NCBI GenBank assembly: GCA_965220485.1
Contig: OZ244832.1
Location: 4,475,068-4,539,067, forward strand
Length of the DNA stretch: 64,000 nucleotides
Reading direction: 5' to 3'
From: Candidatus Aldehydirespirator sp.
GTDB lineage: Bacteria; Actinomycetota; Acidimicrobiia; Acidimicrobiales; Aldehydirespiratoraceae
In this document: piece after piece, positions 8,340 through 51,309 of the stretch
How the letters are laid out: every line of letters starts with the position of its first letter
Numbering within the stretch: position 1 is the first letter of the stretch
Notes under the pieces: model-generated
What the model was told of the DNA's origin: nothing
What the model saw: only the letters and a program-made list of their open reading frames with translations
Databases searched by the model: none
Position numbers and translations under genes: made by a program

Positions 8340-9290
8340 ATGACTTTGGCGGACCTGTTCCGCAAGTTCCCTGACGACGCTGCGGCTGAGGCTTGGTTCG
8401 TCGCTCAGCGCTGGCCGGACGGGGTACGGTGTCCGCACTGTGATTGTGACAGGGTGCAGGACGGCGCGAAGCATCCTTCGCAGCGGTTCCGGTGCCGTGG
8501 CTGCGGGAAGCGGTTCTCGACTCGCACCGACACTGTGATGGCCGATTCCAACTTGGGGTTTCAGGATTGGGCGGTCGCGGTGTATGCGGTACTGACGAAC
8601 CTCAAAGGGGTCAGCTCGATGAAGTTGCATCGTGACTTGGGGATCACCCAGTCGAGCGCATGGTTCCTGTTGCACCGCATCCGCGAGGCATGGGCAACCC
8701 GTGACGTTGAGCCGATGGCCGGACCGGTCGAAGCCGACGAGACGTATGTGGGTGGCAAGGCCCGCAACATGAGCGCCAAACGCCGCGCCGCTGTCAAGCC
8801 GCGGCCGGGCCGCGACACCGCTTCCAAGACCGCGGTGGTCGGGGTGAAGGACCGCACCAGCAACCGGGTGTCTGCCCGGCCTGTGGCCGACGTGTCGGCT
8901 GCGAGCCTGACCGGCATGATCTCTGAGACGGTTGTTTCTGGTGCTCGGGTGTTCACCGACGAATGGCGCTCATATCGGCCGCTGGCTTCGTTGGGGTACT
9001 GCCATGAGCGGGTCGCCCACGGTACCCGCGAGTACGTGCGCGGCGATGCGCACACCAACGGCATCGAGTCGCTGTGGTCGATGTTCAAGCGCGGCTACAT
9101 GGGCACCTACCACCAGATGAGCCGGGCGCATCTGCACCGCTACGTCAACGAGTTCACAGGCCGTCACAACGTCCGGCCGTTGGACACCGAAGCACAGATG
9201 GCTTCGGTCGCGGCCGGGATGGTCGGCCGGAAGCTCTACTACGACGACCTGATCGCTACTCCCGAGCCTGTTGCTGCTGAGCCGTGGTGA
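8340..9290 (+). CDS. IS1595-family transposase (N-terminal zinc-ribbon + DDE domain)
   Basis: The 316-aa ORF has a CPHC…C…C zinc ribbon (VRCPHCDCDRV…FRCRGCGKRF). The DDE core region …VVGVKDR…ETYVGG…TDEWRSY…NGIESLWS… is typical of ISXO2/IS1595 transposases. Confidence 0.85.
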   Translation: MTLADLFRKFPDDAAAEAWFVAQRWPDGVRCPHCDCDRVQDGAKHPSQRFRCRGCGKRFSTRTDTVMADSNLGFQDWAVAVYAVLTNLKGVSSMKLHRDLGITQSSAWFLLHRIREAWATRDVEPMAGPVEADETYVGGKARNMSAKRRAAVKPRPGRDTASKTAVVGVKDRTSNRVSARPVADVSAASLTGMISETVVSGARVFTDEWRSYRPLASLGYCHERVAHGTREYVRGDAHTNGIESLWSMFKRGYMGTYHQMSRAHLHRYVNEFTGRHNVRPLDTEAQMASVAAGMVGRKLYYDDLIATPEPVAAEPW

Positions 9291-12323: not shown

Positions 12324-12827
12324 GTGACGATGGTCTCGTTCAGCGTCGAAACGATCGCCTTCGAGTCAGCGGACACTTCTCCGGTTGTCGGAGAGATGGA
12401 GGGCCTGGAGGCCCGGGGCGACGGTCAGGGCTGGATCAACATCGGCCCCGGGCTGCGAGACGACCAGATCGACCGGCTGCCGCCGCCGACGGTGCTGGGA
12501 CGCTGGTTCTCAGGACGGGGGCCGGCGGTGCCGATGGCGACGTGGACTCCGCCTCGGGGAGTTCCAGGCTCCATGCCGCCGACCTTGGGCGTTGAGCACG
12601 GCGCGGGCCCCAAAGCCCTGGACCTGCTCCGTGACGCCGGGGCGCCGCTGCCTGCCGGCTGGCGCAAGGTGCAGGACCACGCCAAGCACGGAATCGTCGC
12701 CCATCCATCGTCTCAAGCGTCCCACCACGACGTGCTGCTCTGGCTCCTGTCGGTGTGCTGGGCGCTGTGCCCCATAGACATAGAGGACAACTGGCTGGCA
12801 GAAATCCACCGCCCTCCTAGGAGTTGA
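12324..12827 (+). CDS. hypothetical protein (167 aa) at left edge of inserted island
   Basis: The ORF has high GC3 and no recognisable domain. Its last codons plus stop fall within the repeated 11-mer CTAGGAGTTGA (12817-12827). Confidence 0.2.
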   Translation: MTMVSFSVETIAFESADTSPVVGEMEGLEARGDGQGWINIGPGLRDDQIDRLPPPTVLGRWFSGRGPAVPMATWTPPRGVPGSMPPTLGVEHGAGPKALDLLRDAGAPLPAGWRKVQDHAKHGIVAHPSSQASHHDVLLWLLSVCWALCPIDIEDNWLAEIHRPPRS

Positions 12828-13013
12828 AGCCTGGACCCACCGATGGGACTGTGGTCTCTCACCAAATCTGCACGGATTGTGCTCGCATACGACGCGTTTC
12901 TCTACAGATTTCGGGACACCAGCGCTTCATGGTTGGGGTAAGTCCATCGCATGGTCTAACGGGCCGACCTGAAATGCCATACATTGTCACAGGGATTGGC
13001 TACCTTTGGGATC

Positions 13014-15932
13014 ATGGCCACCACTGAGCCGACCGTCAACACCTACGTGGCCCAATCGTTACGGACCATGCACCCGCGCTGGGCCGAGAGGGGCGCGATC
13101 GTCTCGCAGGCGACTGGGTTGATCGCTGGCGACAAGGGCAAGCAGCCCGACATCATGGTCCGCGTCCCGGGCGCAGCTCCTTTGGTGATCGAGGCCGAGT
13201 TCTACCCGGCGCGCACCCTGGAGGACGACGCGCTGAGCCGTGTGGGCGCTCAGACCGCCAACAGGTTCAGGCCCATCGAGACGGTCGTTGCGCTGCGCTA
13301 TCCGCGGCGTCTGCGCGATGTGCCCGAGACCGGCCTGGCCGAGGAATTGGCAAAGTGCGACGACTTGGAGTGGTGCGTGTGGACGGAAGGGCCCAGCAAC
13401 GTCAGGTTCCCGTCCGATGGCTGGGTGCGAAGCAGCTTGCCCCACTTGGCCAGCGCGATCGAGGTGGTGGCGGTGTCGCCGCGCCGCATCGACACGGCGG
13501 CGGACCGAATGGAACTGGGCGTCCTGCACGGCTCGGCTCTGCTGGCCGAGGCCGGCACGACGACCCAAGCCAAGCTGGCCGAACTCTTGCACCAGGAGGC
13601 CGGCGAGCAGACAACGAGGATGGCGGCGTCGGTCATCATCAACGCTTTCCTGTTCCAGATCGCGGTGGCGTCCAGCCACGGCACTCCGGGGATCGAGGCG
13701 ACCGCCGCCGCTTCGGGGGATCCGGAGCATCTGAGCAAGGCGGACGTGCTCGACGTCTGGAAGCAGATCCTGCGAATCAACTACTGGCCGGTATTCGACA
13801 TAGCCCGCAGGCTGCTGCTGCCGATCAGTCAGCCCGTTGCTGACGAACTATGCCAGAGGCTAGGCCAGACGGCCTTGAGCCTGGCCGCTACCGGCGCCGT
13901 CGAGGTGCAGGACCTCGCGGGACAGATGTTCGGGAGGCTGATCGCCGACCGCAAGTTCCTGGCCACCTTCTACACGCTGCCCGAGTCGGCCGCCCTCTTG
14001 GCTGAGCTGGCGGTGTCGCGCCTCGACACCGAAGTCGACTGGTCCGACGCGACGGCCGTGACCGACCTGCGGATCGGGGACCTGGCCTGCGGGACCGGTG
14101 CGCTGCTCTCTGCGGTCTACCGGCGCATCGCGGCGAGGGTGCGCCGGGCCGGGCATGACGACGCCCGGCTCCACGCTGCGATCATGCAGGAGACGCTGAT
14201 CGGCGCCGACATAATGCCCGCCGCGGCCCACCTCACCACGACGATCCTGTCGGCCTCGCACCCGGCGATCGGATTCGGGAAGTGCGGCGTCCATGTGCTG
14301 CCCTTCGGGCGCATCCCCGGCGGCGGCGTCGCCGTGGGCTCTCTGGACCTGCTTGGCGATGCCGGGACCCTCTCGCTTCTGGGGCGGCCGGGAACCCGGC
14401 TGGCCGGGAGCATGGACGACGACGAGCCCGACGACGCCCTCGCAGCGTGCAACGTCGGCGACGGCACCCTCGACCTATGCATCATGAACCCGCCGTTCAC
14501 CCGTCCCACCAACCATGAGACGGCTGGCACAGCGGGTGTTCCGGTGCCGTCATTCGCGGGGTTCGGCACCACGGCGGACGACCAGCGGGCCATGTCGGCG
14601 CGGCTCGCCGAGTTGAGTCCGGCGGGCAACGGGCCGCGTGCCGGCCACGGTAATGCTGGCCTGGCCTCGAACTTCGTCGACTTGGCGCACGCCAAGCTGC
14701 GCCCGGGAGGAGTGTTGGCGCTGGTCCTGCCGTTCTCAGCCGCCTCCGGTGGATCCTGGGCGGGACTGCGGCGGCTCCTCGAAAGGCACTACCGCGATGT
14801 GACTGTGGCCTCCATCGCAGCCCATGGGAGCACCGCCCGCGCCTTCTCGGCCGACACCAGCATGGCGGAGATCGCGCTCGTGGCCGTCAAACGACTCGCA
14901 GACACCGCAGTCGAAGGGTCGCGGGTGAGCTGGAGCAGCCTGGCGCGCCGCCCGACGAGCATGGTCGAAGCAGTGCAGGTCGCTCGGGCCATCCACGACA
15001 GCGGGGCGCCGTCGGCGGCGCTCGGGGTGGAGGTGGGCGGCGTCCGCGTCGGATGCGTGCTACCGGGCGAGGTCTATGACGGCGGGCTCGCGGCGGTGGC
15101 CGAACCCGCCGTCGCGCATTTCGGGCTCGCACTGAGCAGATACGAGCCGAGCCTGAATCGGATCGGACACCTGCCGATTGCGGTGGTGCGGCTGGGCGAG
15201 ATGGGAAGACCCGGCCCGGTGCACCGGGACATCAGCGGCACGGACAAGACTTCCGGCGCGTATCGGGGCCCCTTCGACGTCAAGCCGCTGCTGCCCGGTC
15301 GGACCCCCTCCTATCCCGTTTTGTGGGCCCACGACGCGGCCTCGGGCCGCGAGTCGCAGATCGAGGTCCCGCCGGACACCCAGGGAAGGGTCCGAGCCGG
15401 TATGGACGAGCAGGCGCTCGGCGTGTGGGCGACGGCCACCCGCCTGCACATCAACCTCGACTTCCAGATCAACAGCCAGTCTCTGGTGGCCTGCGCCACT
15501 GCCGAGCCGTGCATCGGCGGAAGGGCCTGGCCGTCCTTCGCCCTTGACGACACGGCCTGGGAAGAGGCCGTGGCCCTGTGGATGAACACCACGCTCGGCC
15601 TGATCGCATTCTGGTTCGCAGGCAGCCGTCAGCACCAGGGACGGGCCAGTCTCACAGTCACCCGGCTGGCCGACCTGGTAGTCGTCGATCCCCGCAGTCT
15701 CACAGACGAGCAGCTTGGCGTGGCCAGCGACGTGTTCGAGCGTTTCAGGAGCCGGCCGTTGCTGCCGGCCAACGAGGCGTATCGCGACGCGACGCGCCAG
15801 GAACTGGACGAGGCTGTGCTGTGCGAGGTACTAGGGCTTCCCGCCGATGTGCTGGCTCCGCTGTCGATCCTGCGCACGCAGTGGTGCGAAGAGCCGTCGG
15901 TTCACGGAGGCAAGTCCACCCGTCCCCGCTGA
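13014..15932 (+). CDS. MmeI/PglX-like large gamma-class N6-adenine DNA methyltransferase (Type IIG/IIL RM-enzyme homologue) with degenerate N-terminal PD-ExK-like motif
   Basis: AdoMet motif I IGDLACGTGALL lies upstream of catalytic motif IV CIMNPPF, which is gamma-class order. The N-terminal segment QPDIMVRVPGAAPLVIEAEF mirrors the MmeI nuclease segment D-LFWPGILLIEMK but reads E-A-E where MmeI has E-x-K. A ~330-aa C-terminal region is a candidate TRD. A TTG at 12984 is an alternative start. Confidence 0.75.
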   Translation: MATTEPTVNTYVAQSLRTMHPRWAERGAIVSQATGLIAGDKGKQPDIMVRVPGAAPLVIEAEFYPARTLEDDALSRVGAQTANRFRPIETVVALRYPRRLRDVPETGLAEELAKCDDLEWCVWTEGPSNVRFPSDGWVRSSLPHLASAIEVVAVSPRRIDTAADRMELGVLHGSALLAEAGTTTQAKLAELLHQEAGEQTTRMAASVIINAFLFQIAVASSHGTPGIEATAAASGDPEHLSKADVLDVWKQILRINYWPVFDIARRLLLPISQPVADELCQRLGQTALSLAATGAVEVQDLAGQMFGRLIADRKFLATFYTLPESAALLAELAVSRLDTEVDWSDATAVTDLRIGDLACGTGALLSAVYRRIAARVRRAGHDDARLHAAIMQETLIGADIMPAAAHLTTTILSASHPAIGFGKCGVHVLPFGRIPGGGVAVGSLDLLGDAGTLSLLGRPGTRLAGSMDDDEPDDALAACNVGDGTLDLCIMNPPFTRPTNHETAGTAGVPVPSFAGFGTTADDQRAMSARLAELSPAGNGPRAGHGNAGLASNFVDLAHAKLRPGGVLALVLPFSAASGGSWAGLRRLLERHYRDVTVASIAAHGSTARAFSADTSMAEIALVAVKRLADTAVEGSRVSWSSLARRPTSMVEAVQVARAIHDSGAPSAALGVEVGGVRVGCVLPGEVYDGGLAAVAEPAVAHFGLALSRYEPSLNRIGHLPIAVVRLGEMGRPGPVHRDISGTDKTSGAYRGPFDVKPLLPGRTPSYPVLWAHDAASGRESQIEVPPDTQGRVRAGMDEQALGVWATATRLHINLDFQINSQSLVACATAEPCIGGRAWPSFALDDTAWEEAVALWMNTTLGLIAFWFAGSRQHQGRASLTVTRLADLVVVDPRSLTDEQLGVASDVFERFRSRPLLPANEAYRDATRQELDEAVLCEVLGLPADVLAPLSILRTQWCEEPSVHGGKSTRPR

Positions 15933-15952
15933 TCAGGACTGTCCGGTCCTAC

Positions 15953-16175
15953 TGCTAGGAGTTGATCACCGCTTCCACGATGAGGTCGATCACGGCCTGG
16001 GCGTCCGCGTCCCACACGACGTCTTGGGCGGGCGGAGCCAGCTCAGCGGCGACGGCCGCTGGTGGGCGCACGTCGGTCACGGTCATGCCCCGGGTGTGCT
16101 CGCCGCGCAGTTCCACCGCAACCGGATGGCTTGACCGGTGGAATAAGTGGGGGTGGGTGATCGCGATGATGGCGT
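15953..16175 (-). pseudogene. duplicated 3'-end fragment (~220 bp, ~85% identical) of the nucleoside hydrolase gene at 20424-20645
   Basis: Direct alignment of 15953-16175 with 20422-20645. The translated fragment …THPHLFHRSSHPVAVELRGEHTRGMTVTDVRPPAAVAAELAPPAQDVVWDADAQAVIDLIVEAVINS* matches the true gene's C-terminus and has no upstream start. Confidence 0.8.
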
Positions 16176-16298
16176 GGCACGGCGTCCCGCCCCCGGTCTG
16201 CCGCGTCGGCACGTTGAACACGGGACTGCCAACCCGCGACATTGCATGGACGACACTGAGGATTGTCGCCGTGTTGGCTCGCCGGTAGGGTCGCACCC

Positions 16299-19200
16299 AT
16301 GCGGGTGGGCTCCATCGAACTGCCGGAAGAACTGGTGGACGCGCACGCCGAGGGCCGCCTCGTCCTGTTCGTTGGCGCCGGCGCGTCTGTCGCCGAGCCA
16401 ACATGCCTGCCCACCTACCGCGAGCTGGCCGAGAAGCTGGTCGAGCAGAGCGAGAGCCTGGTCTGCCGAGCAAGCCTCGACCGGCCAGACATAGTGCTCA
16501 GCAAACTCAAGTCGGACGGCGTAGACGTCCACGGGTGCGTGCACAAGCTGATCAGCGATCCGCAGGACCGGCCCGCGCCGAGGTCGAACAAGCTTCACCA
16601 AGCCATCGCCAGCCTGGCGACGGCCTCGCCGCAGGTGAGGATCGTCACCACCAACTACGACCGCTGCCTGTCGAACTGCCTGCCGGAGGGCGTGGACGAG
16701 TATGAGGCGCACGCCCTTCCCGAACAAGACGAGTTCACAGGGTTGGTCTACCTGCACGGCTCCGTGCGCCTGCCACTAGAGCGCTTGATCGTCACCGGAG
16801 ACGACTTGGGCCGTCACTACCTGAGCAACCACGGCGCGGCCAGGTTCCTGGAGCTGATGTTCCGAAACCTGTCGGTGCTGTTCATCGGCTACAGCTTGAA
16901 AGACACGTTGATGGACTATCTGGTCAGAGGACTACGTTCGGACCGGATCTATGTCTTGACCAACAAGCCGCAGGCCTCGCAGTGGCACCAACTCCGCATC
17001 ACTCCCATCGGTTGCGAGAGCCATGACAAGTTGCCTGGCATCGTCCAAGATTGGGCGGATCTGTCTCGGATGAGCATGTTGGATCATCAGCAGCGCGTCC
17101 GCCGAATCGTCTCAGGATCACCTCCCCTGACACCGGGCGACGACTCGTATCTTCACGACATCGTCTCTGACACTCGTCGACGAGGGCTGTTCATCGGTCA
17201 GGCGCGCGGCCTCGACTGGCTGCACTGGATGAGTTCCAAACCACCCTTCAAAGAGCTTCTGGATCCGTTCGTGTCGCCCGAGCGTATCGACCACAGGTTG
17301 GCCCAATGGTTCGCTGACCACTATGCGGCCAACGAGGACAGCACCACTGAGGCGCTAAGCCTGATCGTCGATGCCGGCGGAACCCTCAACCGTGAACTCT
17401 GGATGGCGATTGCGCAGTCTCTAAGGCTCCAGTCAGGCACGCGCAGTGAGGCAATGGATAGATGGCTGGCGCTGTTGGTGGAAGCGACGCCCCCAAGTCG
17501 TGGTCAAGATCACGTACTGCTCCTCTCACTACTCTTGGACGGATGCGACCCGGAGCGAGATCGCGCTGCGGTCCTGCTCCTACTGGACAGAGTTCTAGAG
17601 CCTGCACTACAGATGCGGCGTGATCAAGGTGCCAGAGTCGTCGTACCACTGTGCCGCAACTCGTTGGCTGAGCACCGGTTCGACCAGATCAAGCCTTACA
17701 TGTCGGCTCTTGCACTGGACCTAGCCCCGATTGTAGATCGGCAGCTGCGTAGAGCCCATTGGTTGCAGCGGGCGATCCACTCTCGAACGGAACAATATGA
17801 TTCCACGACAGTGCAGTTGATGGCACAACTAGGCCAAGATGTCTCGCATGTGACGGATCGCGAGTTCTTCGACAGCACGAGCCACAGACGCAAGGCCATC
17901 GAGTCTCACAGTCGGAACAAGCTCGCGTGCGGCATTGACCTGCTGATCGATGTTGCTCGGGATGTGTTGGAGCTGCTTGTGGAACGGTCACCAACGATCG
18001 CCGGCAGCTACCTGGAGAGTTGGAGCGGAGCCGAATCGGCGCTCCTGCGACGTCTGAGCGTTCACGGCTGGTGCGAGCGGACGGACGTGACCGCTGACGA
18101 GAAGCTGAAGTGGCTCACGAACGACGACTGGCTTGACGACCGGGACGCACATCACGAGGTGATGCGGCTGATCGCCACGGTCGCGCCGTCTGCCTCGGAG
18201 GGCGCGCTCGGTGGGCTGATTGAGCGTGCGTCGTCGGATTCGGTTGGCTGGAGAGAATTGAGACTCCTAGGTTGGATCGCACGGCACGCGCCCCAGTCGA
18301 TTGCGGCCCGCCGGGCTTTCGAGGCAGCGAAGAGGGCTCATACCCAGTGGAAGATGCCGAAGGATGCAGACTTCCGGGGCGGCGAAATCACGGGTGGGCA
18401 TATTCCGCTTCTACCGATTCGCGAGGCACATGAACTGCACGAACTCATCAGACAAGAACCACCGGAAGCGGTTGCACTGCTGCAGAAGTACGCCGACGTT
18501 GACGATTGGGAGGCTCCGGGATGGCTTTCGGCTATGGATGCTCTGCGTGCCACGGTAGAGGAGCATCCTGACGACGGTGTCAGCGTTCTTGAGGTGATCG
18601 CAGACGATACCGAGATCGATGCTGCAGTCAGTCAGAGCATCGCCGAGACAGTGTTCGGCGTGCTGAGCCGCATCGAGCAATCCCGCAGTCAGATCGATCA
18701 GTTGCAGGCCGTTCTCCCGAAGGTGTGGAAGACCGGCCTTGAGCGCTTCAACCCCCAGAGCCATGTCGTGAGTCCGTCGAGATGGATCGACGCCGCCATA
18801 AATCATTGGGCGGGCAAGTTGGCAGAACTGTGGATCGCCATCATCGCCGCTCAGTGGCGGAATGCTGGCGAGACGTGGGCCGGTCTCTGCAACACTACGA
18901 GTGCAGCGCTTAGAGAACTCTTGGCCGACGACAGTCAGGCATCGCACCATGCTCAGGCCGTACTGGCCAGCAAGGTGGCTTACTTGTTTGCAGCTGACCA
19001 GAAGTGGTGCCAAGACAACCTGCTACATCGTTTCGACAGTGAACGAGACAGCCTGCAGGCGTTTCGATTCTGGGACGGACTCTTGGGAAGCGGCCAACTG
19101 AGCGACGATCTATTGCAGGCTGGACTCTTGGACTATTTTGTCGGCTTCAGCCGCCAGCTCGAGGGCGGTGAGGAGAGGACAGGGGGCGGCGATGAGTCGA

Positions 19201-19871
19201 TTCGATCATCATATCTGGAGGCGGCAGCCGCCATTTGTCTTCAGAGTCAGATCAATCCTATGGAGCACGGTTGGCTCAGGAAGTGGATCTCTAGAATGGA
19301 CGCGAGCGGTCGCTGCGAGTGGGCTAGGATCGTGGCCTGGATGTTGTCGGAGATGTCGGCAGACGCCGCTGACGTTCACTGGTCGAGATGGATAAAAGGC
19401 TACTGGCAGAATCGAGTTGACAGCATCCCGCTGGCCCTCACGCCGGATGAGTCATCAGCGATGGTCGAGTGGACGGTACTGTTGGAAGCTGGTTTCACGG
19501 AAGCCGTTGAATTGGTAGCTTCCACCGAAGCCAGCTTTGTGAGGGAATCTCATATTCCTTCAGTGCTTTTAGATCACGCTGGGGCTGATGGCGACCGCTC
19601 GCGGCCGGATCATATCGCCCTTGAACCGCTAGTCGTGCGCGACCTCCTCGCGCATCTTCTCTCTAACAGCGAGACCACGGCTGATGACGATGGTCCTTGG
19701 AGCATCACGGACGCTGTCGAGCGGCTCGACCGAGCCCTCGACGAAGACGAGATGAAGCCCATATTGAACGAGCTGCTCAGACTCGGACACGAGGAGTTTG
19801 TCTCATGGCTTCAATCTCGGGAGCGAACGCAACAGGATCTCTTGTCGCCGGTGGGGTCGCCGCCTGGCTGA
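16299..19871 (+). CDS. DSR1-like antiphage protein: N-terminal SIR2 (SIR2_2/ThsA-type, NADase) domain + ~900-aa alpha-helical repeat C-terminal region
   Basis: The SIR2_2 motifs LVLFVGAGAS, IVTTNYDRCL, LVYLHGSV and VLFIGYSLKD are present. Total length is 1202 aa (tool ORF from 16263). GC is lower than its surroundings. Confidence 0.75.
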   Translation: MRVGSIELPEELVDAHAEGRLVLFVGAGASVAEPTCLPTYRELAEKLVEQSESLVCRASLDRPDIVLSKLKSDGVDVHGCVHKLISDPQDRPAPRSNKLHQAIASLATASPQVRIVTTNYDRCLSNCLPEGVDEYEAHALPEQDEFTGLVYLHGSVRLPLERLIVTGDDLGRHYLSNHGAARFLELMFRNLSVLFIGYSLKDTLMDYLVRGLRSDRIYVLTNKPQASQWHQLRITPIGCESHDKLPGIVQDWADLSRMSMLDHQQRVRRIVSGSPPLTPGDDSYLHDIVSDTRRRGLFIGQARGLDWLHWMSSKPPFKELLDPFVSPERIDHRLAQWFADHYAANEDSTTEALSLIVDAGGTLNRELWMAIAQSLRLQSGTRSEAMDRWLALLVEATPPSRGQDHVLLLSLLLDGCDPERDRAAVLLLLDRVLEPALQMRRDQGARVVVPLCRNSLAEHRFDQIKPYMSALALDLAPIVDRQLRRAHWLQRAIHSRTEQYDSTTVQLMAQLGQDVSHVTDREFFDSTSHRRKAIESHSRNKLACGIDLLIDVARDVLELLVERSPTIAGSYLESWSGAESALLRRLSVHGWCERTDVTADEKLKWLTNDDWLDDRDAHHEVMRLIATVAPSASEGALGGLIERASSDSVGWRELRLLGWIARHAPQSIAARRAFEAAKRAHTQWKMPKDADFRGGEITGGHIPLLPIREAHELHELIRQEPPEAVALLQKYADVDDWEAPGWLSAMDALRATVEEHPDDGVSVLEVIADDTEIDAAVSQSIAETVFGVLSRIEQSRSQIDQLQAVLPKVWKTGLERFNPQSHVVSPSRWIDAAINHWAGKLAELWIAIIAAQWRNAGETWAGLCNTTSAALRELLADDSQASHHAQAVLASKVAYLFAADQKWCQDNLLHRFDSERDSLQAFRFWDGLLGSGQLSDDLLQAGLLDYFVGFSRQLEGGEERTGGGDESIRSSYLEAAAAICLQSQINPMEHGWLRKWISRMDASGRCEWARIVAWMLSEMSADAADVHWSRWIKGYWQNRVDSIPLALTPDESSAMVEWTVLLEAGFTEAVELVASTEASFVRESHIPSVLLDHAGADGDRSRPDHIALEPLVVRDLLAHLLSNSETTADDDGPWSITDAVERLDRALDEDEMKPILNELLRLGHEEFVSWLQSRERTQQDLLSPVGSPPG

Positions 19872-19905
19872 GCACAAGCCTCTCAGCAGATGAACAGGCA
19901 ATGCT

Positions 19906-20385
19906 GTGAGGGTTGCGCGGACTCGCGCCTTCGATCAGTGGCTGGAGGACATCACCGACATCAGGTCTCCGGTGTACTTGGGCGAGTCGTGCCGACATGT
20001 GCAAGATCAGGTCGAGGCACTGATCGACATCCTATCGGCTGCCGAACACCCCGTCGGCAGGCCGGATGGTGCGCCGCTGCGGGGCAGTCGGTACGCGCTG
20101 CACGAACTGAGATGGCCGCGGCTGGATCGAGGTGAAGGCCCGGACGTTCGGAGCGGACAGCCGGTTGTACGCGTGTTCTACGGGCTGGTGGGCAGAAGAT
20201 TCGAGCGTGCCGGGAGCCGAGGCCCGATCGCAGTCATGCTGCTCGGCGGAAACAAGACGTCGGCGATCGCGGGGTCCGGCTCACAGGATCGATGGTATGC
20301 GGATCACATCCGTCTCGCAGAGGCGCGCCTCGAACAGTGGTGCGCTGACCATCCCACGCTGATGCCTATCCGGGCGAGCCGATAG
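19906..20385 (+). CDS. RelE/ParE-superfamily 'addiction module killer' protein (COG3657/TIGR02683-like), orphan (no adjacent antitoxin)
   Basis: The N-terminus …FDQWLEDITD… is followed by …ELRW…PVVRVFYGLVG…IAVMLLGGNKTS…WYADHIRLAEARLEQW. No HTH antitoxin ORF lies between it and the convergent hydrolase gene. Confidence 0.5.
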   Translation: MRVARTRAFDQWLEDITDIRSPVYLGESCRHVQDQVEALIDILSAAEHPVGRPDGAPLRGSRYALHELRWPRLDRGEGPDVRSGQPVVRVFYGLVGRRFERAGSRGPIAVMLLGGNKTSAIAGSGSQDRWYADHIRLAEARLEQWCADHPTLMPIRASR

Positions 20386-20423
20386 CCGTCCGGCGCGTCC
20401 GTGGGACGCAAGTCCAGCCGCCG

Positions 20424-21374
20424 CTAGGAGTTGACCACTGCCTCCACGATCAGGTCGATGACTGCATGGGCGTCGGCGTCCCACACCACGTCGTGGGCGG
20501 GCGGAGCTGGCTCAGCGGCGATGGCGGCCGGAGGGCGCACGTCGGTGACGGTCATGCCTCGGGTGTGCTCACCGCGCAACTCCACCGTCACCGGGTGGCG
20601 CGACCGGCGGAACAGGTGCGGGTGCGTGACGCAGATGACGGCCGTGGCGTCATGCACCGGGGCCGCTTCCAGGCCGAACTCCCGGCACCGGTCGTAGGCG
20701 AACTCCAGGAGGCCGGCCGCGAAGTCGGCCGCCGGGGTACCGGCTGAGCGCATCCGGGCCGCTTCGTCGCCTCCGAGCAGCACCCTGTGGGTGACGTCGA
20801 GGCCGACCATGGTGATCGGCGCCGCCTCGGAGAACACGATGGCGGCCGCCTCGGGGTCGGCCCACACATTGAACTCGGCTACGGAGGTGACGTTGCCGGT
20901 GTGGGCGCCGCCCCCCATGATGGTGAGCCCGGCCAGATGGCTCCGCAGGTCGGGGTCGCGCCTCAGCGCGAGGGCCACGTTGGTGAGGGGCCCGACCGCC
21001 ACCAGGTGCAGGTCGTCGACGGAGCGGGCCATGTCGCACAGGTAGGCCACGGCGTCCTCGGAGGCCACGGTCCGGGTCAGCTCGGGCAGGGCCACGTCTC
21101 CCAGCCCGGTGGCCCCGTGGATGCGGGCCGCGTCCATGGTGGGGGCGATCAGCGGCCGGGCCGAGCCCCGGTGCACGGGTACCTCCAGGCTGGCGATCTG
21201 CGCGGTCACCAGCGCGTTGTGGGTGGTGTGCTCGATGCCCACGTTGCCGTTGACGGCAGTGATCCCCACCAGCTCGCCGTGGTGGGCCGCGGTGAGGATG
21301 GCGATGGCGTCGTCGAGCCCAGGGTCGCAGTCCAGAACGATCCGGGGCCGGGCCGGTGCCGCGTCGACGGTCAC
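20424..21374 (-). CDS. inosine-uridine preferring nucleoside hydrolase (IUNH/Rih family)
   Basis: The 316-aa ORF has the signature RIVLDCDPGLDDAIAIL and the Ca-binding Asp cluster. Confidence 0.9.
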   Translation of the reverse strand: MTVDAAPARPRIVLDCDPGLDDAIAILTAAHHGELVGITAVNGNVGIEHTTHNALVTAQIASLEVPVHRGSARPLIAPTMDAARIHGATGLGDVALPELTRTVASEDAVAYLCDMARSVDDLHLVAVGPLTNVALALRRDPDLRSHLAGLTIMGGGAHTGNVTSVAEFNVWADPEAAAIVFSEAAPITMVGLDVTHRVLLGGDEAARMRSAGTPAADFAAGLLEFAYDRCREFGLEAAPVHDATAVICVTHPHLFRRSRHPVTVELRGEHTRGMTVTDVRPPAAIAAEPAPPAHDVVWDADAHAVIDLIVEAVVNS

Positions 21375-24995: not shown

Positions 24996-25026
24996 TGGGC
25001 TCGAGCACGGGCCCGCCCGCCGCGGA

Positions 25027-26826
25027 TCAGCCCTCGGCGGCAGCTACGAACGGGACCTGGAAGGTGCCGCCGATCACTTCCTGCTGACGGGTCTCGAAGA
25101 GATTCATCGCCTCGGCGGAGATGGAGGCTGCGCTGTAGTCGGGGTTGATCTGGACCTCGAAGCCACCGTCGCTCATCAGCACGTCGTAGGTGAGCTGGAA
25201 GTTGCCGGCCTTGATGTCCTCCACCATCCGGCGGTAGGTCTCGCCAATCTGCCAGGCCATGGACGCCACCACGTTGTCGGGGGCCAGGGCCGACTCGTCG
25301 TACACGTAGCCGAAGGCCGACAGCCCCTGCTCGCGGGCCTCCTGGATCATGCCGAATGATCCGGCGTTGCCGCAGGCCACGAACACGTCCGCGCCCTGCT
25401 CGGCCTGGGCCGCGGTGGCCTCCTTGGCCAGCGCGGCGTCCACCCAGGAGCCCAGGAACGCGTCGAGGCGCGTGGCGTCGGGTCGCACCTCTTGCACGCC
25501 GAGCAGGAACGCCTCGACGGTGGCACGGCACACGGGAATGTCGTAGCCCGCGTTTGCGCCGATCACGCCCGACTCCGTGATGCCGCCGGCGAGGATGCCC
25601 GAGAGGTACGCGGGCTCGTGCATCGGCATGAAGTAGTCGGTGATGTTGGGGCCCTCCACGCCGCAGAAGCCGCCGCAGGATCCCTGCCAGGCGAACTTGA
25701 CGTCGGGATAGTCCGGCGCCATCTCATGGATGGGCGCTCCATAGTCGAAGGAGTGGCCGATCACGAGCTGCACGCCCTCCTCGGCGAATCCGCTCATCAC
25801 CCGCGTCGCGCCCTGGGCGTCGAAGGGGGCGTCGTCCACGAACTGCACGTCGATCAGGCCCTCGGACTCGAGCAGCTTGACGCCCTCGTAGGCGGCCTGG
25901 CACCAGGACAGGTCATTGAGGGCGCAGGGCAGCAGGATGGCCACGCTCACCTTCTCGTCCGCCATAGCTTCGGGTTTCTCGGCTTCGGGTTCCTCGGCGG
26001 CGGGTTCCTCGGCGGCGGGCTCGGGTTCCTCGGCCGCGGGGGCCGTCGTGGGCGCGGGCTCGGGCGCAGCCTCCTCGGTGGCGTCGCGGTTCAGCCCCAT
26101 CATCCGGGTGTGGAACCCGAACGGGGTCCGCCTCAGGACGTAGGCCACCACGGGGATCAGCCCGAGTCCGATCAGCAATCCGATGTGGACCCGCAGGCCC
26201 GGCACGTCGGGCAGCCGGGCCGCGTCGGGAAGCGTCTCGGACACCGGCTGGAAGCCGACTGGGTCTCGCAGCGGCTTGCGGATCGTGTACTCGAGGGTCC
26301 GCAGAGCCACGTAATTCAACAGCAGCGAGGAGATGACCTCGTTCACGCTCCAGCGGGCCCGCAGGAAGCCGACCACCCAGCCCCAAGCACCCCCGGCTGC
26401 GGCCCCGACTATGCAAGCGGCCGGGATCATGACCGCCTGGGCGCTGATCGGGGCATAGATGGCGAAGGCGCCGCCGGCCAAGGCCCCCATCAGGAGTTGG
26501 CCTTCGGCTCCGATGTTCCACACCCGAGCCCGGAACGCCACGGCCAGGCCGAGCCCGATCAACAACAGGGGAGCGGTCTCCACCAGCACGAGGCTGAAGC
26601 TGAAGCGCGAGCCGAAGGTGCCGCTGAACATGTCGGCGAAGGCCTGGAAGGGGTTGGCACCGGCAAGGGCCAGCAGCACCCCGCCCAGCACGAACGCGGT
26701 GGCGACCGCAGCTGCCGACAGCCCCAGGGAGCTGAGTCGGGAACTCCAGCCGGCGACGGTGCTGGCCGCGGTGCGCTCGCGGTCCGGCTGGTCCAAGGAA
26801 TCCACGGGGTTGACTTGAGCGGTCAC
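25027..26826 (-). CDS. unusual fusion: N-terminal half of a BMP-system ABC permease (~6 TM, through the GxNxxA loop) + Pro/Glu/Ala linker + complete BMP-family (PnrA/Med-like) substrate-binding domain
   Basis: This is a single 599-aa ORF. Its TM segments run to …HTRMMGLNRDAT. The linker EEAAPEPAPTTAPAAEEPEPAAEEPAAEEPEAEKPE follows. The C-terminal SBP domain KVSVAILLPCALNDLSWCQAAYEGV… then begins. Confidence 0.6.
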   Translation of the reverse strand: MTAQVNPVDSLDQPDRERTAASTVAGWSSRLSSLGLSAAAVATAFVLGGVLLALAGANPFQAFADMFSGTFGSRFSFSLVLVETAPLLLIGLGLAVAFRARVWNIGAEGQLLMGALAGGAFAIYAPISAQAVMIPAACIVGAAAGGAWGWVVGFLRARWSVNEVISSLLLNYVALRTLEYTIRKPLRDPVGFQPVSETLPDAARLPDVPGLRVHIGLLIGLGLIPVVAYVLRRTPFGFHTRMMGLNRDATEEAAPEPAPTTAPAAEEPEPAAEEPAAEEPEAEKPEAMADEKVSVAILLPCALNDLSWCQAAYEGVKLLESEGLIDVQFVDDAPFDAQGATRVMSGFAEEGVQLVIGHSFDYGAPIHEMAPDYPDVKFAWQGSCGGFCGVEGPNITDYFMPMHEPAYLSGILAGGITESGVIGANAGYDIPVCRATVEAFLLGVQEVRPDATRLDAFLGSWVDAALAKEATAAQAEQGADVFVACGNAGSFGMIQEAREQGLSAFGYVYDESALAPDNVVASMAWQIGETYRRMVEDIKAGNFQLTYDVLMSDGGFEVQINPDYSAASISAEAMNLFETRQQEVIGGTFQVPFVAAAEG

Positions 26827-28448
26827 CGCGCCGCAGCCCTCTCGGCTCGGCTGCCCGCTCCGCCCATCGCCATGCCGATCGTCTCCCTATCCAGCGGGGT
26901 CTCAACGAGTCGGCCTCGGTAGATCACGAAACACCGGTCGGAGAGGGCGGTCACTTCGTTGAGGTCCGTGGTGATCAATAGCACCGCGACCCCCGCATCG
27001 CGTTGGTTCCTGATCTGGTTCCACACGAATTCGATGGCTCCTACGTCGAGCCCTCTGGTGGGCTGAGCGGCGATCAGGAGCTGCAGGTCGGTGCCGAGGG
27101 CGCGGGCCAGCACGACCTTCTGCGCGTTCCCTCCCGACAGAGTGGAGGCCGCGGTCGACGGGCTTCGCACCGCGATGGAGAACCGCTCCACCAGGTCGGC
27201 GCCCCGAGCGGCCACCGCCCTGGGGTCGATCCAGAGCCGGCGGCCGTACGGGGCCCTGTCGATGCGGTCGTAAACGAGGTTCTCGGCCACCGACAGCCCG
27301 CGGATCAGACCGCGGCGGTAGCGATCGGACGGGATGATGCCCACTCCGGCGTCCAGCAGTTGCCGGGGGGTTGCATCGGTGACGTCGGCTTGGCCGAGGC
27401 GTATCCGTCCCGAGGCTGGCTGGCTCAGCCCGCACAGGACCGCCTCCAGTTCGGCCTGGCCGTTGCCCTCGACACCCGCGATGGTCACGATTTCGGAGGC
27501 TCGCACCTCCAGGCTCACGTCGAAGAAGTCCCTGGAGTGCTCTCCGCTGGTTCCGGGCACCGATGTCGATGACAGATCCTCGAGCGTCAGCACGGCCGGA
27601 CCCGCCGAGGCTGAGGCGGCCCTCGCGTCGGCTTCCTCGACCTCTCCGACCTCGCTCAGCATCGTCACTTCCCGGCCCACCATCAGCCGGGCCAGCTCCA
27701 GCGGGCTGGTCACCTCCGCGGGCAGCGTGGCCACGTTGGCGCCGGCCCGCAGAACGGTTATCCGATCGGCCGCGGTCATCACCTCATCGAGGTGGTGCGT
27801 GATCATGACGATGGCGGTGCCAGCTGCGGCCATGGCTTGCAACTGCTCGATCAGATGGTCTATCTCCACGGGTGAGAGGGTGGCTGTCGGCTCGTCGAGG
27901 ATCAGGATCCTCGCGCCCCGATACAGGGCCCGGAGAATCTCCACCCGCTGCTGCTCTCCCACCGAGAGGTCCCCGACCAGCGACGCGGCCGAGACCGGCA
28001 GCCCGTAGCGCTCGCCCAGGTCCTCGATGGCGGAGGCCACCTCGACCAGGTCGGGGAGCCTGATCCGGCGGCCCTCGCTGGCGCCCAAGATCACGTTCTC
28101 GGCCACTGACAGCCGCGGCACGAGCTGGAAGTGTTGATGGACCATGCCGATGCCGGCCTCGATGGCGTCGTGCGCGGACCGGAGGCGCACCCGCTCGCCG
28201 TCGATCTCGATGGTCCCCTCGTCGGGGCGCTCCAGTCCGTAGAGCAGGTTCATCAGCGTCGTCTTGCCCGCGCCGTTCTCGCCCAGCAGCGCATGGATCT
28301 CGCCGGAGTAGAGGTCGAAGTCGGCGCCGGAGACGGCGGTGACTGATCCGAACCTCTTGGTGATGCCGCGCATCGCGACCACCGGGCCCGATGCGGACCG
28401 GTCCGTGCCGCGGCCGTCCCCCGGCGGGTCCCGGTCCGTGACCATCAC
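26823..28448 (-). CDS. ABC transporter ATP-binding protein with duplicated ATPase domains (BMP/simple-sugar/nucleoside uptake type)
   Basis: The 541-aa protein has two Walker A/signature/Walker B sets (LLGENGAGKTTL; …ILILDEPTA…). It lies directly upstream of the permease-SBP gene. Confidence 0.85.
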   Translation of the reverse strand: MMVTDRDPPGDGRGTDRSASGPVVAMRGITKRFGSVTAVSGADFDLYSGEIHALLGENGAGKTTLMNLLYGLERPDEGTIEIDGERVRLRSAHDAIEAGIGMVHQHFQLVPRLSVAENVILGASEGRRIRLPDLVEVASAIEDLGERYGLPVSAASLVGDLSVGEQQRVEILRALYRGARILILDEPTATLSPVEIDHLIEQLQAMAAAGTAIVMITHHLDEVMTAADRITVLRAGANVATLPAEVTSPLELARLMVGREVTMLSEVGEVEEADARAASASAGPAVLTLEDLSSTSVPGTSGEHSRDFFDVSLEVRASEIVTIAGVEGNGQAELEAVLCGLSQPASGRIRLGQADVTDATPRQLLDAGVGIIPSDRYRRGLIRGLSVAENLVYDRIDRAPYGRRLWIDPRAVAARGADLVERFSIAVRSPSTAASTLSGGNAQKVVLARALGTDLQLLIAAQPTRGLDVGAIEFVWNQIRNQRDAGVAVLLITTDLNEVTALSDRCFVIYRGRLVETPLDRETIGMAMGGAGSRAERAAAR

Positions 28449-29353
28449 GTCTCAGCCGGGATGACGCAGTAGGTCAGCCCCATATCGGACAGCCAGCGAC
28501 GGTAGGTGATCGAGGTCTTGTCCGAGCGCACGGGCGTCTCGATCCGCGATCCCAGCGGCAGGCGCTTTGGCCTCTGGTTCTCGAGTATGGGCTTGTCCTG
28601 GCCGAAGATCAGCAGCTGGAAGCGCTTGAGCAGCCGGTCGTCGTTCTCGTCGTCGAGCATCGACAACAGCATGTGGGCTCGCGTGGTCTCCTCGTCCACG
28701 GGCTGGCAGAAGATGGTGATGGCATCCATGCGGGACTCGTCGACGGGGCTCGACTTGAAGAGGATGGCGCAGTAGGGGTGGGGCACCCGGTACACGTACC
28801 CCATGAGCATCCCGCCGTCGGCGTTGAGCGCCCCCAGCGGCTGGAAGAACTCGCAGCGGGTGGCGACTATCTCCCGCCCGTCGTCGACCACGTCGACGTC
28901 ATACTCCTTGACCTCGGTGAGGGGCTCGATGCCCAGGTAGCCGGAGTGGACGTAGGGGAAGTGGCCCATGTCGAGAAAGTTCTCCACTGCCCTCGGAGCC
29001 GATGTGTGCACGCCGATGCTGCCGGCCCACACGTTGTGACGGTCGGGCTCGCCGAACTCCGGGAGGTCGAAGAGCTCACGCGCGGGAGAACCCAGGCTCG
29101 TCCAGATGTAGCCGAAGCGGTTGATCGACGGCAGCCGCTCACCTATGGCCGCGGGGGCGAATCGAGAGCCCGCGGGCAACTCCGGGATCGATCTCCAGGC
29201 ATGGATGTCGCCGTCGGCGCTGACTCCGTACGAGACGGGCTCTTCGAGCAGCTGTGTCTCATTCACGATCCCGGGAGCCAGCTCGACGACGGCGCCGACG
29301 GGGTGCCACAGGTTCAGGGCGACCGGATCGGTGCACTTGGAGCCGGCGGTCAC
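28445..29353 (-). CDS. Rieske-oxygenase catalytic-domain-like protein lacking Rieske cluster ligands (non-haem Fe 2-His-1-carboxylate motif ENFLDMGHFPYVH)
   Basis: The GTG start at 29353 overlaps the cyclase stop (GTGA). The 302-aa protein has E-x3-D-x2-H-x4-H, as in ring-hydroxylating oxygenase alpha subunits. The N-terminal WHPV… region has no CxH/CxxH pairs. Confidence 0.5.
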   Translation of the reverse strand: MTAGSKCTDPVALNLWHPVGAVVELAPGIVNETQLLEEPVSYGVSADGDIHAWRSIPELPAGSRFAPAAIGERLPSINRFGYIWTSLGSPARELFDLPEFGEPDRHNVWAGSIGVHTSAPRAVENFLDMGHFPYVHSGYLGIEPLTEVKEYDVDVVDDGREIVATRCEFFQPLGALNADGGMLMGYVYRVPHPYCAILFKSSPVDESRMDAITIFCQPVDEETTRAHMLLSMLDDENDDRLLKRFQLLIFGQDKPILENQRPKRLPLGSRIETPVRSDKTSITYRRWLSDMGLTYCVIPAET

Positions 29354-47598: not shown

Positions 47599-48474
47599 AT
47601 GCCCGACAAGCGCATGACCGAAGACGAAGTGGTCGCCGAACTCGGCAGCGGCATGACCATCGGCATCGGCGGCTGGGGCTCGCGCCGCAAGCCGATGTCG
47701 CTGGTGCGGGCCATGCTGCGAAGTGATCTGACCGATCTTCACGTGGTGAGCTACGGCGGGCCGGATGTCGGCTTGCTGTGCGCCGCCGGCCGGGTCCGCA
47801 GGATCACCTACGGCTTCGTGTCGCTCGACTCCATCCCGCTGGAGCCCCATTTTCGGATTGCCCGCCAGACCGGCTCGGTGGAGGCCCGCGAGTTCGATGA
47901 GGGCGCCTTCTACCTGGGGCTGCTGGCGGCGGTGCACCGGGTGCCCTTCTACCCCACGAGGGCGGGCCTTGGATCGGACATGCTCACCTACAACCCCGAT
48001 CTCAAGACGGTCACCAGCCCCTACGGCGATGGCACCGAACTGGTGGCCGTGCCCGCCTTCGACATCGACGTATCGCTGGTGCACATGAACCGGGCCGACG
48101 CGGCCGGCAACGGGCAGTTCCTCGGTCCGGACCTGTACTTCGACGACCTGTTCGCCATGGCTGCCAAGCGCACCTTCATGTCGTGCGAGCGGGTGGTGCC
48201 CACTGAGGACCTCCTGAAGGAGGGCTCGGTCCACACCCTGAAGATCCCACGACTGCACACCGCCGGGGTGGTGGAGGCACCGGGCGGTGCCCACTTCACC
48301 GAGTGCCCCCCCGACTACGGCCGGGACGAAGGCTTCCAGCGGGAGTACGCGGCCACAGCTCGCGACCCCGACGTCTGGGCTCAGTTCTGTGCCGACTGGC
48401 TGGACCTTCCCTCCCACGACGCCTACCGGTCCCGCCTCGCCGAGCGGACCGAATCCGCTGGAGCGGAGCGATGA
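47599..48474 (+). CDS. CoA-transferase subunit A (3-oxoacid/glutaconate CoA-transferase family; IpdA-like)
   Basis: N-terminus …AELGSGMTIGIGGWG…. The 291-aa protein is followed by a B subunit with an ATGA overlap. Confidence 0.75.
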   Translation: MPDKRMTEDEVVAELGSGMTIGIGGWGSRRKPMSLVRAMLRSDLTDLHVVSYGGPDVGLLCAAGRVRRITYGFVSLDSIPLEPHFRIARQTGSVEAREFDEGAFYLGLLAAVHRVPFYPTRAGLGSDMLTYNPDLKTVTSPYGDGTELVAVPAFDIDVSLVHMNRADAAGNGQFLGPDLYFDDLFAMAAKRTFMSCERVVPTEDLLKEGSVHTLKIPRLHTAGVVEAPGGAHFTECPPDYGRDEGFQREYAATARDPDVWAQFCADWLDLPSHDAYRSRLAERTESAGAER

Positions 48475-49250
48475 GCGACGCAACCATCGATGAGATCTGT
48501 CTGGTTGCGCTGGCCGAGGCCTTCCGGGGGGATGGCGAGCTGCTCTGCCATCCGATGGGTCCGTTCCCGGTGGCGGCTGGCAGGCTGGCGCGGGCCAGCT
48601 TCGAGCCCGACCTCATGCTCACCGACACGATCGCCTACGCGGTCGTCGACACCCTGCCGCTGGGGGCGACAGTTGGCGATCCCGGCGACGGGGACGAGGG
48701 CATCGTGGTCGAGGGCTACCTGCCGTTCCGAACGGTGTTCGACCAGGCATGGTCGGGGTGCCGCCACGTGGTGATGGGTGCCAGCCAGATCGACCAGCAC
48801 GGAAACCAGAACTTCGCGGCCATCGGCGACTACCGGAAGCCCAAGGCCCAGCTCCTCGGGCTGCGGGGCGCTCCCGGAAACGTGATCAACCACACCACGA
48901 GCTACTGGATCCCGAACCAGGCCCGGTCGTTCTCCGAGAGTGTCGACGTGGTATCGGGTCCGGGCTATGACCGGGTGGCGGCGCTGCCCGAGCCGAGCGG
49001 CCGCTTCCACGAAATCCGCAGGGTCGTGACCGAGTTGGCCGCCTACGACTTCGAGACGCCCGACCGAACCATGCGGCTGCGGTCCATCCATCCCGGCGCA
49101 TCCGTCGACGATGTGCTGGCGGCCACCCCCTTCGAGCTCTCAGTGCCCGAAGATGTTCCAGCCAGCCGGCTCCCCACCCACGAGGAGCTGCATCTCATCC
49201 GCGACGTGATCGACCCCAAGAGCATCCGCAAAGCCGAGTTCCGCCGCTAG
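48471..49250 (+). CDS. CoA-transferase subunit B (IpdB-like)
   Basis: A 259-aa beta-subunit-like sequence; the family call rests on length and on translational coupling (ATGA) to the upstream A subunit. Confidence 0.7.
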   Translation: MSDATIDEICLVALAEAFRGDGELLCHPMGPFPVAAGRLARASFEPDLMLTDTIAYAVVDTLPLGATVGDPGDGDEGIVVEGYLPFRTVFDQAWSGCRHVVMGASQIDQHGNQNFAAIGDYRKPKAQLLGLRGAPGNVINHTTSYWIPNQARSFSESVDVVSGPGYDRVAALPEPSGRFHEIRRVVTELAAYDFETPDRTMRLRSIHPGASVDDVLAATPFELSVPEDVPASRLPTHEELHLIRDVIDPKSIRKAEFRR

Positions 49251-49296
49251 TTCTCCAACTCTAGTCTCACAGATAGAACTGACAGGCCTAGTCACA

Positions 49297-50667: not shown

Positions 50668-51260
50668 GGCGGCCGCGTTCGACTTCCCAGCGGCATGTCA
50701 GACGCTCGCGCGAAGAGCGTCGCGTTATCCGCATATATCCTGAAGGTTCGGTAACCGAGTTCGAGTACTTAAGGCACTGGGAACGACTGGGTCAGCGTGT
50801 GACTATAGATTGGGGAGAAGCGGCTATGTCCCCTATGGGCATGGTTAGCCGGGCCAAGAACGACCTTAGGTTGAGTCGGCGCGCTGCGAGACGTCACGGC
50901 ACACCTCAATTCGATGAAATCTGGTGTATATTCGATGTTGATAGCCATCCGCAGGTTCCGCAAGCGATATTCGAGGCGATGCAGAGCGACATTAGTGTCG
51001 TAGTCTCCAATCCATGCTTTGAGTTGTGGCTCGTCCTGCATTCTCATGCCCAAAGAGCCCCTGTAGACAGTAGAGAGATACAGCGACGGGCAGCTGAGCT
51101 TGGTCTCGTTGACGGCAAGAATGTCCCAAGGACGCATGGCGTGTCCTCGAAGAAAACTATGAGGACGCGAGGCGACAAGCGAAGAAACTGGACCAATGGC
51201 ACGAGGACAATGACTCGCCGCCTCGGTCAAACCCCAGTTCCGACGTGTGGCGTCTCGTAG
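50664..51260 (+). CDS. RloB-like protein (PF13707; AbiLii-like partner of AAA_21 ATPase)
   Basis: The GTG start overlaps the upstream stop (GTGA). It has motifs …VIRIYPEGSVTEFEY… and …IWCIFDVD…VVVSNPCFELWLVLH…. Confidence 0.7.
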   Translation: MRRPRSTSQRHVRRSREERRVIRIYPEGSVTEFEYLRHWERLGQRVTIDWGEAAMSPMGMVSRAKNDLRLSRRAARRHGTPQFDEIWCIFDVDSHPQVPQAIFEAMQSDISVVVSNPCFELWLVLHSHAQRAPVDSREIQRRAAELGLVDGKNVPRTHGVSSKKTMRTRGDKRRNWTNGTRTMTRRLGQTPVPTCGVS

Positions 51261-51309
51261 ATCGACTCCGCTCGTAGGGTTCAGCCGCCATGGTGGCTGA
51301 GCGAGACTG

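Follow-up and report, generated by a model that had tools for sequence, protein, structure and literature searches.

The gene considered here lies on the plus strand at 13014..15932 of a 64,000-nt stretch of DNA from Candidatus Aldehydirespirator sp. (contig OZ244832.1 of assembly GCA_965220485.1), and this whole stretch is referred to below as the window. It is a complete, uninterrupted open reading frame (ORF) of 972 amino acids (aa) plus a stop codon, in agreement with the length of about 970 aa given in an earlier note made from the letters of this DNA, and its stop-free translation is predicted to unite a nuclease, an N6-adenine methyltransferase (MTase) and a target-recognition domain (TRD) in a single chain. 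The ATG at 13014 is supported as the start by the N-terminus MATTEP, which is kept in the homologue alignment. Full-length homologues are 47-97% identical to the protein, and its full-length model has a predicted local distance difference test score (pLDDT) of 83 and a predicted template modelling score (pTM) of 0.88.

Four parts can be recognized in the predicted structure, in the architecture of a Type IIG restriction-modification (RM) enzyme. An N-terminal PD-(D/E)xK nuclease-fold domain with an alpha-beta-beta-beta-alpha-beta core (aa 1-140, 13014..13433; all parts are on the plus strand) is followed by an all-helical connector domain (aa 141-295, 13434..13898) that resembles the HsdM N-terminal domain or the BpuSI connector, then by a gamma-class N6-adenine DNA MTase domain (aa 296-630, 13899..14903), and finally by a C-terminal target-recognition-like module (aa 631-972, 14904..15929), in which aa 631-720 are the most variable and aa 761-972 form a conserved scaffold. 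Within the MTase domain, motif X (FYTLP, aa 319-323, 13968-13982) stands N-terminal to motif I (DLACGTGALL, aa 356-365, 14079-14108), with motif IV (NPPF, aa 492-495, 14487-14498) further on. Because motif X precedes motif I, the gamma-class order X-I-IV is confirmed, in line with the class, DLACGTGALL and NPPF as the earlier note had read them. Across 80 genomic copies, taken from loci of relatives in species-representative genomes, FYTLP, DLACGTG (aa 356-362) and NPPF are invariant; the motifs quoted for this protein, here and below, are invariant or nearly so in 80-150 homologues, which places them, as alignments go, far beyond chance. The N-terminal region of about 390 aa that had been placed before motif I does exist, but it is shorter, at about 355 residues, and the MTase fold already begins near residue 296. 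An endonuclease and an MTase domain in one polypeptide are the criterion for a Type IIG or IIC enzyme, and the 972-aa ORF contains both.

Sequence models capture little of this architecture. The Pfam scan of the protein yielded sub-threshold generic methyltransferase matches alone, with no match at E<=1 to the Eco57I methylase model (PF07669); MmeI_N, MmeI_hel, MmeI_Mtase, MmeI_TRD and MmeI_C gave no match at E<=1 in the window protein or in 40 aligned relatives, of which 15 have weak matches to Eco57I (best 9.8e-6) and 11 to N6_Mtase. Nothing relevant was returned by the NCBIfam scan. All PADLOC matches lie within the MTase core (MTase_II 2.8e-11, mad2 6e-8, PglX 2.8e-4, Type IIG 3.9e-4), the best PglX match being limited to the 75 residues of aa 335-409, and a profile of the family found no significant match among the sequences of the PDB, where the best real one was BrxX, on motif I, at an E-value of 0.23. 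Since these models assign neither the first 300 aa nor the last 340 aa, the classification rests on predicted structure. An alignment-based AlphaFold2 model of residues 1-300 (pLDDT 91.6) shows the alpha-beta-beta-beta-alpha-beta core followed by a helical bundle, with D46 opening the strand 47-49 and E60 and E62 inside the strand 57-63. Fold matches of this N-terminal region include HsdR, NgoMIV, BsaWI, Hjc and Cas4, its helical part matches HsdM N-terminal domains, and the whole chain is matched best by BpuSI, with PglX, DrdV/MmeI and CamA as further matches. A PD-(D/E)xK nuclease fold at the N-terminus, as had been suspected, is therefore what the structure prediction returns, and the label MmeI/PglX-like stands for the shared fold architecture but not for membership of either family by sequence models.

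The putative catalytic motif lies in the segment KQPDIMVRVPGAAPLVIEAEF (aa 43-63, 13140-13202) and reads P45-D46-x13-E60-A61-E62 (13146..13199, with PD at 13146-13151 and EAE at 13191-13199). The reading of E-A-E in place of E-x-K was correct, and no alignment shift yields a Lys. An alignment of 40 homologues shows P45, D46 and E60 without exception and E62 in 38 members, with D in one and the motif E-C-K in homologue P0076. In the 80 genomic copies, which span about 10 phyla, D46 and E60 are each found in 79 of 79, position 62 is E in 75 and K in four, and E70, R76 and E89 are nearly invariant. The same holds at greater distances: among the 150 best representatives with less than 50% mutual identity, E5 is kept in 137/137, D46 in 142/146 and E60 in 145/147, and position 62 is E in 140, K in six and G in one (E ~95%, K ~4%), with the K variants reading E-C-K or E-A-K in the same alignment column and a degenerate site seen in one truncated fragment only. 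The near-invariant E5 and R76 are encoded at 13026-13028 and 13239-13241, respectively, and E5, D46, E60 and E62 are the putative metal ligands. Deeper relatives on the plasmids Sulfuricystis pSTJ1 (WP_126447967.1) and Aminobacter pUSP4 (WP_108610813.1) (26-27% identity, family-model E ~1e-110) carry the canonical PD..E-G-K, and a Nitrosospira plasmid relative (37% identity) reads E-T-E.

The earlier note took the Glu as the mark of a nuclease-dead Type IIG derivative. This reading is not supported, because E-x-E appears to be conserved throughout the family, with E and K interchanging at position 62 beside near-invariant D46 and E60, and because the motif Lys is naturally replaced in active enzymes, by E in BamHI, by Q in BglII and NotI and by N in MspI (PMC4081073). 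A column that takes only E or K beside invariant acidic residues, and does so in hundreds of clusters, has the look of an active site maintained by purifying selection rather than of a decayed one, although conservation of this kind is not proof that DNA is cleaved. As far as alignments can tell, Glu for Lys is the norm of this family and no sign of a dead enzyme, and the lesson is that a single deviating catalytic residue must be judged against its family before it is taken for a sign of inactivation.

Its variability, the signs of swapping and its fold-level alignment all lead us to read the C-terminal third as a TRD. The C-terminal 340 aa align at the fold level with the TRD regions of CamA, PglX, LlaBIII and BpuSI. 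In the 80 genomic copies the least conserved stretch of the whole protein is aa 631-720, after which the well-conserved scaffold follows, and 21 of the 32 substitutions that separate the window protein from its 97% identical orthologue fall in aa 669-948. Paralogues that stand side by side also differ here: the tandem pair at locus L046 (9989-16480) is identical to about aa 570 and 57-90% identical thereafter, and the adjacent pair at locus L014 (75-6590) shares 13-46% identity within aa 631-900. In both pairs a shared N-terminus and MTase are combined with a diverged C-terminal third, which looks like recombinational swapping of a specificity module. Specificity modules that can be swapped, in Type I as in Type IIG enzymes, behave in the same way.

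The surroundings of the gene point to a unit of one gene. When ORFs of at least 100 aa within 10 kb on each side of the 80 related loci were clustered, no conserved neighbour emerged, and the sole recurrent cluster was the family itself; the next, an ABC ATPase, occurs in 10 loci at variable distances, and the remainder are assorted housekeeping genes. For small ORFs (30-130 aa) and for the 300-bp flanks, conservation is limited to closely related genomes. Neither pglZ, brxC, brxL nor any other gene of the bacteriophage exclusion (BREX) system was found near the window gene or in the 80 loci, and no companion MTase gene lies beside the window gene or recurs in those loci. With no recurrent neighbour, the PglX-like component working with another effector, which had been proposed as one possible role, is left unsupported. 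The window gene sits among genes for a Cys/Met pyridoxal phosphate (PLP) enzyme, a coenzyme A-binding protein, a nucleoside hydrolase and PfkB; it is chromosomal, stands amid housekeeping genes, and has no adjoining mobility genes, and the same is true of most of the 80 loci. Four related genomes have the gene in synteny, and its orthologue at locus L082 is 84.8% identical, versus 93-95% for the flanks, so that the gene diverges faster than its surroundings.

A Dsr1-like SIR2 gene (16299-19871, plus strand) follows 370 bp downstream, with matches to PADLOC Dsr1 (2e-41) and to Pfam SIR2_2 and DUF4020 and an NCBIfam Dsr1 match far below cutoff. The idea that it forms a two-gene unit with the MTase was rejected on the grounds of synteny, GC content and a bracketing duplication. 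The three closest orthologous loci (L081, L082 and L001, at protein identities of 97%, 85% and 76%) have no SIR2 gene and share the order Cys/Met-PLP enzyme, small ORF, MTase, nucleoside hydrolase and PfkB. Window positions 12970-16178 are 96% identical to L081, but the following 4.2 kb (16179-20426) are an insertion with no counterpart there, set between two copies of a 220-nt piece of the hydrolase 3' end (repeats at 15954-16173 and 20423-20642, 84% identity), and the GC content of the SIR2 gene is 0.60 as against 0.69 for the MTase gene. Past the insertion, the hydrolase and PfkB genes are 81-85% identical to L081, compared with about 95% for the flanks, in a tract that extends to about 22300; this contrast suggests that about 6 kb came in by recombination from a donor of greater divergence. 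The MTase gene is thus a resident of the Acidimicrobiia lineage, and the SIR2 gene was added there later, independently and in this strain only. Three copies of the 11-mer CTAGGAGTTGA, and no more, are present in the window: one at 12817, a short way upstream of the MTase cassette, and one at the stop-codon end of each hydrolase copy (15955 and 20424). That the MTase is a cassette bounded by the copies at 12817 and 15955 was also considered and rejected, as L081, L082 and L001 have the gene in the same place without the 11-mer, the hydrolase duplication explains two of the three copies, and 238 other 11-mers occur at least three times in the window. Positions 12817-12969 are not alignable to L081, and the triple occurrence is probably due to chance.

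The family to which the protein belongs is large. When the first 300 aa served as the profile in an exhaustive search, 1,817 clusters at 50% identity were recovered, 520 of them at E<=1e-30; the N-terminal domain is always at the N-terminus, and full-length proteins have about 955-1070 aa. Unnamed and without significant Pfam or NCBIfam matches, this is to all appearances a new sequence family, and no paper describing it was found in the literature. Some members depart from the common layout: homologue P0107 has a C-terminal UPF0175 (antitoxin-like) extension, and P0093, P0094 and P0098 are each extended by about 150 aa at the N-terminus. At loci L066, L028 and L055 the gene is split into two adjacent ORFs, which are probable frameshifted pseudogenes and indicate occasional decay. 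Several copies per genome are common, and one Hyphomonadaceae metagenome-assembled genome (MAG) has four loci of 46-52% mutual identity. Long-read MAGs of Rhodothermales and Alphaproteobacteria hold tandem arrays whose copies are 97-100% identical, namely four copies at L034 (2811-15870, with unit lengths of 3592, 3592 and about 2990 bp), three at L043 (1476-12895) and two at L006 (9992-15883).

Nearly all of the 80 closest species-level loci come from MAGs with names that point to marine-sponge holobionts, such as Ca. Poriferisodalis, Latescibacterota, Synechococcus SB/CAR bins, Thioalkalivibrio sp. HK1 and bins with the prefixes jk18x, p16x, RHO, CAR and APA; many relatives are from chromosome-level MAGs built on long reads (OZ/OY records). 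They span about 10 phyla, with Acidimicrobiia, Chloroflexota, Alpha- and Gammaproteobacteria, Acidobacteriota, Gemmatimonadota, Cyanobacteria, Rhodothermales, Binatia and Leptonemataceae among the taxa. For one of them, the Aplysina aerophoba bin36 of locus L035, the sponge origin is given in the literature (PMC5649159); for all the others we infer it from organism and bin names, and the window genome itself is probably that of a sponge symbiont. Enrichment in RM systems is reported as a unifying trait of sponge symbionts (PMC5649159). The family is not confined to sponges, as relatives are found on plasmids of soil and freshwater isolates beside conjugation or leading-region genes: next to type IV secretion system genes on Nitrosospira pNRS527-2 (L083, 8001-10946; no gene is listed for this copy in the PLSDB table), next to a PRTRC system with a small N6-methylase on Sulfuricystis pSTJ1 (L084, 7890-10805), and next to an ArdC-like zincin protein on Aminobacter pUSP4 (L085, 7404-10247). 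In a phage collection, matches were limited to the MTase core, in haloviruses and at 25% identity, and no phage vector is evident.

On balance, we favor, with some reserve, the reading that the window gene encodes a stand-alone Type IIG/IIL-like single-chain RM enzyme, and such an enzyme is probably active and of a new sequence family. The C-terminal module would read a short asymmetric DNA site, and the MTase would place an S-adenosylmethionine-dependent N6-methyladenine (m6A) mark on an adenine of that site in host DNA, providing self-protection without a separate methylase, as in MmeI. The N-terminal nuclease would cut unmethylated incoming DNA in a Mg2+-dependent manner and at a distance set by the connector, probably through two cooperating enzyme molecules, and E-x-E would be a clade-wide catalytic variant of the BamHI type as opposed to an inactivating mutation. 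A gene that is multi-copy, spread across phyla, tandemly repeated, plasmid-borne and fast-diverging looks like one with selfish or defence-gene behaviour.

Several points weigh against this reading. No characterised Type IIG enzyme with an E-x-E site is known to us, and the case for nuclease activity draws on conservation and on Type IIP precedents that are unrelated to this protein. The conserved acidic residues could instead serve metal-dependent DNA binding or regulation between domains. The known Type IIG, MmeI and PglX sequence models fail to recognise the nuclease and C-terminal regions, whose assignment is a matter of predicted structure, and the scaffold of aa 761-972 shows more conservation than is usual in a TRD. 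Tandem arrays of identical copies are atypical of restriction enzymes and could be either real amplification or an assembly artefact. Finally, no biochemical or methylome data were found in the literature for any family member, including that of the Aminobacter sp. MSH1 host.

The most serious rival, which we regard as possible but doubtful, is a nuclease-inactive orphan adenine MTase in which the nuclease fold is a relic kept for DNA binding or regulation and the methylation has an epigenetic role or protects against the restriction enzymes of others. PglX acts as a methyltransferase within BREX, and as a structural neighbour with a related N-terminal domain it lends this view some weight, as do the replacement of the canonical Lys by Glu here and in about 95% of the family, the presence of CamA among the best fold matches for the MTase and C-terminal part, the tolerance of identical tandem copies, and a synteny in four related genomes as stable as that of a housekeeping epigenetic MTase. 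A relic site should drift, however, and here E5, D46, E60 and position 62 (as E or K only) are kept in 140-145 of about 147 representatives with less than 50% mutual identity, K and E interchange at one column as they do in active PD-(D/E)xK enzymes, and the whole 140-aa domain stands at the N-terminus of every full-length member. The fast-evolving, swappable C-terminus and the multi-copy spread across phyla likewise look more like the dynamics of a defence gene. Far less probable is a PglX-like MTase or specificity subunit that depends on separate effectors, be they BREX-like, of another multi-gene system, unlinked, or the adjacent SIR2 protein. The fold-level likeness to PglX comes with a PglX model match that spans just 75 aa of the MTase core, with no pglZ, brxC, brxL or other co-occurring gene in the 80 loci or the window neighbourhood, and with a Dsr1-like gene that is absent from the orthologous loci, differs in GC content and sits in the bracketed 4.2-kb insertion, so that synteny largely refutes this possibility.

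It is also conceivable, if unlikely, that the gene is cargo of mobile elements and serves mainly to protect or stabilise them, be it as a promiscuous protective methylase of plasmid leading regions with an anti-restriction role or as an addiction module of a selfish kind, and that defence of the host comes second. The distant relatives on plasmids, beside type IV secretion genes, PRTRC with an N6-methylase and an ArdC-like zincin, fit such a role, as do the spread over about 10 phyla and the tandem amplifications; the tandem multiplication of RM gene complexes was reportedly described as selfish behaviour by Sadykov et al. in 2003. Yet here, as in most of the 80 loci, the gene is chromosomal and stands amid housekeeping genes; related genomes share its synteny, and an anti-restriction methylase could do without a conserved nuclease site. 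The version with an addiction module fits an RM enzyme as well, and the cargo role overlaps that reading instead of being a true alternative to it. A more speculative proposal, to which we give little credence, is that the E-x-E clade is a holobiont-specific DNA-marking system in which unrelated sponge symbionts share the same or similar m6A marks as a community-wide methylation barcode, which would allow gene exchange inside the sponge microbiome and exclude outside DNA. The conserved C-terminal scaffold across about 10 phyla would then reflect shared or similar marks, the altered nuclease site would confer a changed activity such as nicking or modification-coupled cleavage, and tandem identical copies would tune the dosage of the mark.

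Should the stand-alone RM enzyme be active, a very large single-chain RM family of 1,817 clusters would have been missed by current annotation, since PADLOC models would at best call the window protein an orphan Type II methylase, and the RM content of sponge-symbiont genomes would be undercounted. It would also be the first Type IIG-type family known to us with a BamHI-like E-x-E, with natural E/K variants available for comparison, and its swappable C-terminal module would offer a pool of new, possibly reprogrammable specificities. Single-chain RM is itself known, and no new mechanism is implied by this protein; what is new is the sequence family, the clade-wide E-x-E variant and the spread among sponge-symbiont genomes.

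Elsewhere in the window, an AbiLi-like AAA ATPase gene (49297-50667, plus strand; PADLOC AbiLi 1.5e-84) lies in a low-GC island at about 48500-51500 (GC 0.56 as opposed to about 0.68 around it), which looks like a second, separate defence islet; a PADLOC scan of its neighbours at 48303-49250 and 50769-51731 gave no match. The statement that the window holds no other BREX or RM genes is thus borne out for the ORFs scanned, with the addition that two other defence genes, the Dsr1-like SIR2 and the AbiLi-like ATPase, are present. A second variable spot is found a few kb upstream of the MTase gene, where the segment 8020-10421, with an IS1595-family transposase ORF (8340-9290, plus strand) and unassigned ORFs, is lacking in L082 and has different DNA in its place in L081. 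A further segment of about 4.3 kb (about 24998-29340) is missing from both L081 and L082, in which the blocks on either side of it adjoin directly. Three large ORFs lie on its minus strand, and the one of them that was scanned (25027-26826) has no PADLOC match.

Among characterised systems, the closest whole-chain fold match is the Type IIG enzyme RM.BpuSI (PDB 3s1s), with no detectable sequence similarity to the window protein outside the MTase core. BpuSI has PD-x15-ExK, with the Lys, where the window protein has PD-x13-ExE, and it is accompanied by two separate MTases (PMC4081073), in contrast to the solitary window gene. PglX or BrxX (PDB 8c45, 9ewz) is a protein of about 1200 aa that works only in a BREX operon with pglZ, brxC, brxL and other genes; the window protein gives no significant full-length match to the PglX model and is not a member of that family, and its own family lacks BREX genes nearby and keeps the acidic nuclease-type triad. 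The true orphan N6-adenine methylase CamA of Clostridioides difficile (PDB 7lni) lacks both the N-terminal nuclease and the helical connector, and the Type ISP enzymes LlaBIII and LlaGI carry between nuclease and MTase a helicase-like ATPase motor that is absent here. Eco57I has the motif PD-x13-EAK, with the same spacing as in the window protein, which differs from Eco57I-like Type IIG enzymes in having neither a PF07669 match (E<=1) nor a companion MTase gene. BamHI, a Type IIP enzyme of the PD-(D/E)xK class, is fully active with Glu as its natural motif residue in place of Lys (PMC4081073); being unrelated in sequence, homodimeric and served by a separate methylase, it is a precedent for the chemistry only. 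The Type IIL enzymes MmeI and DrdV (PDB 5hr4, 7lo5) are 'lone' single-chain RM enzymes, and although sequence models do not place the window protein in the MmeI family, its gene likewise stands without a companion methyltransferase gene.

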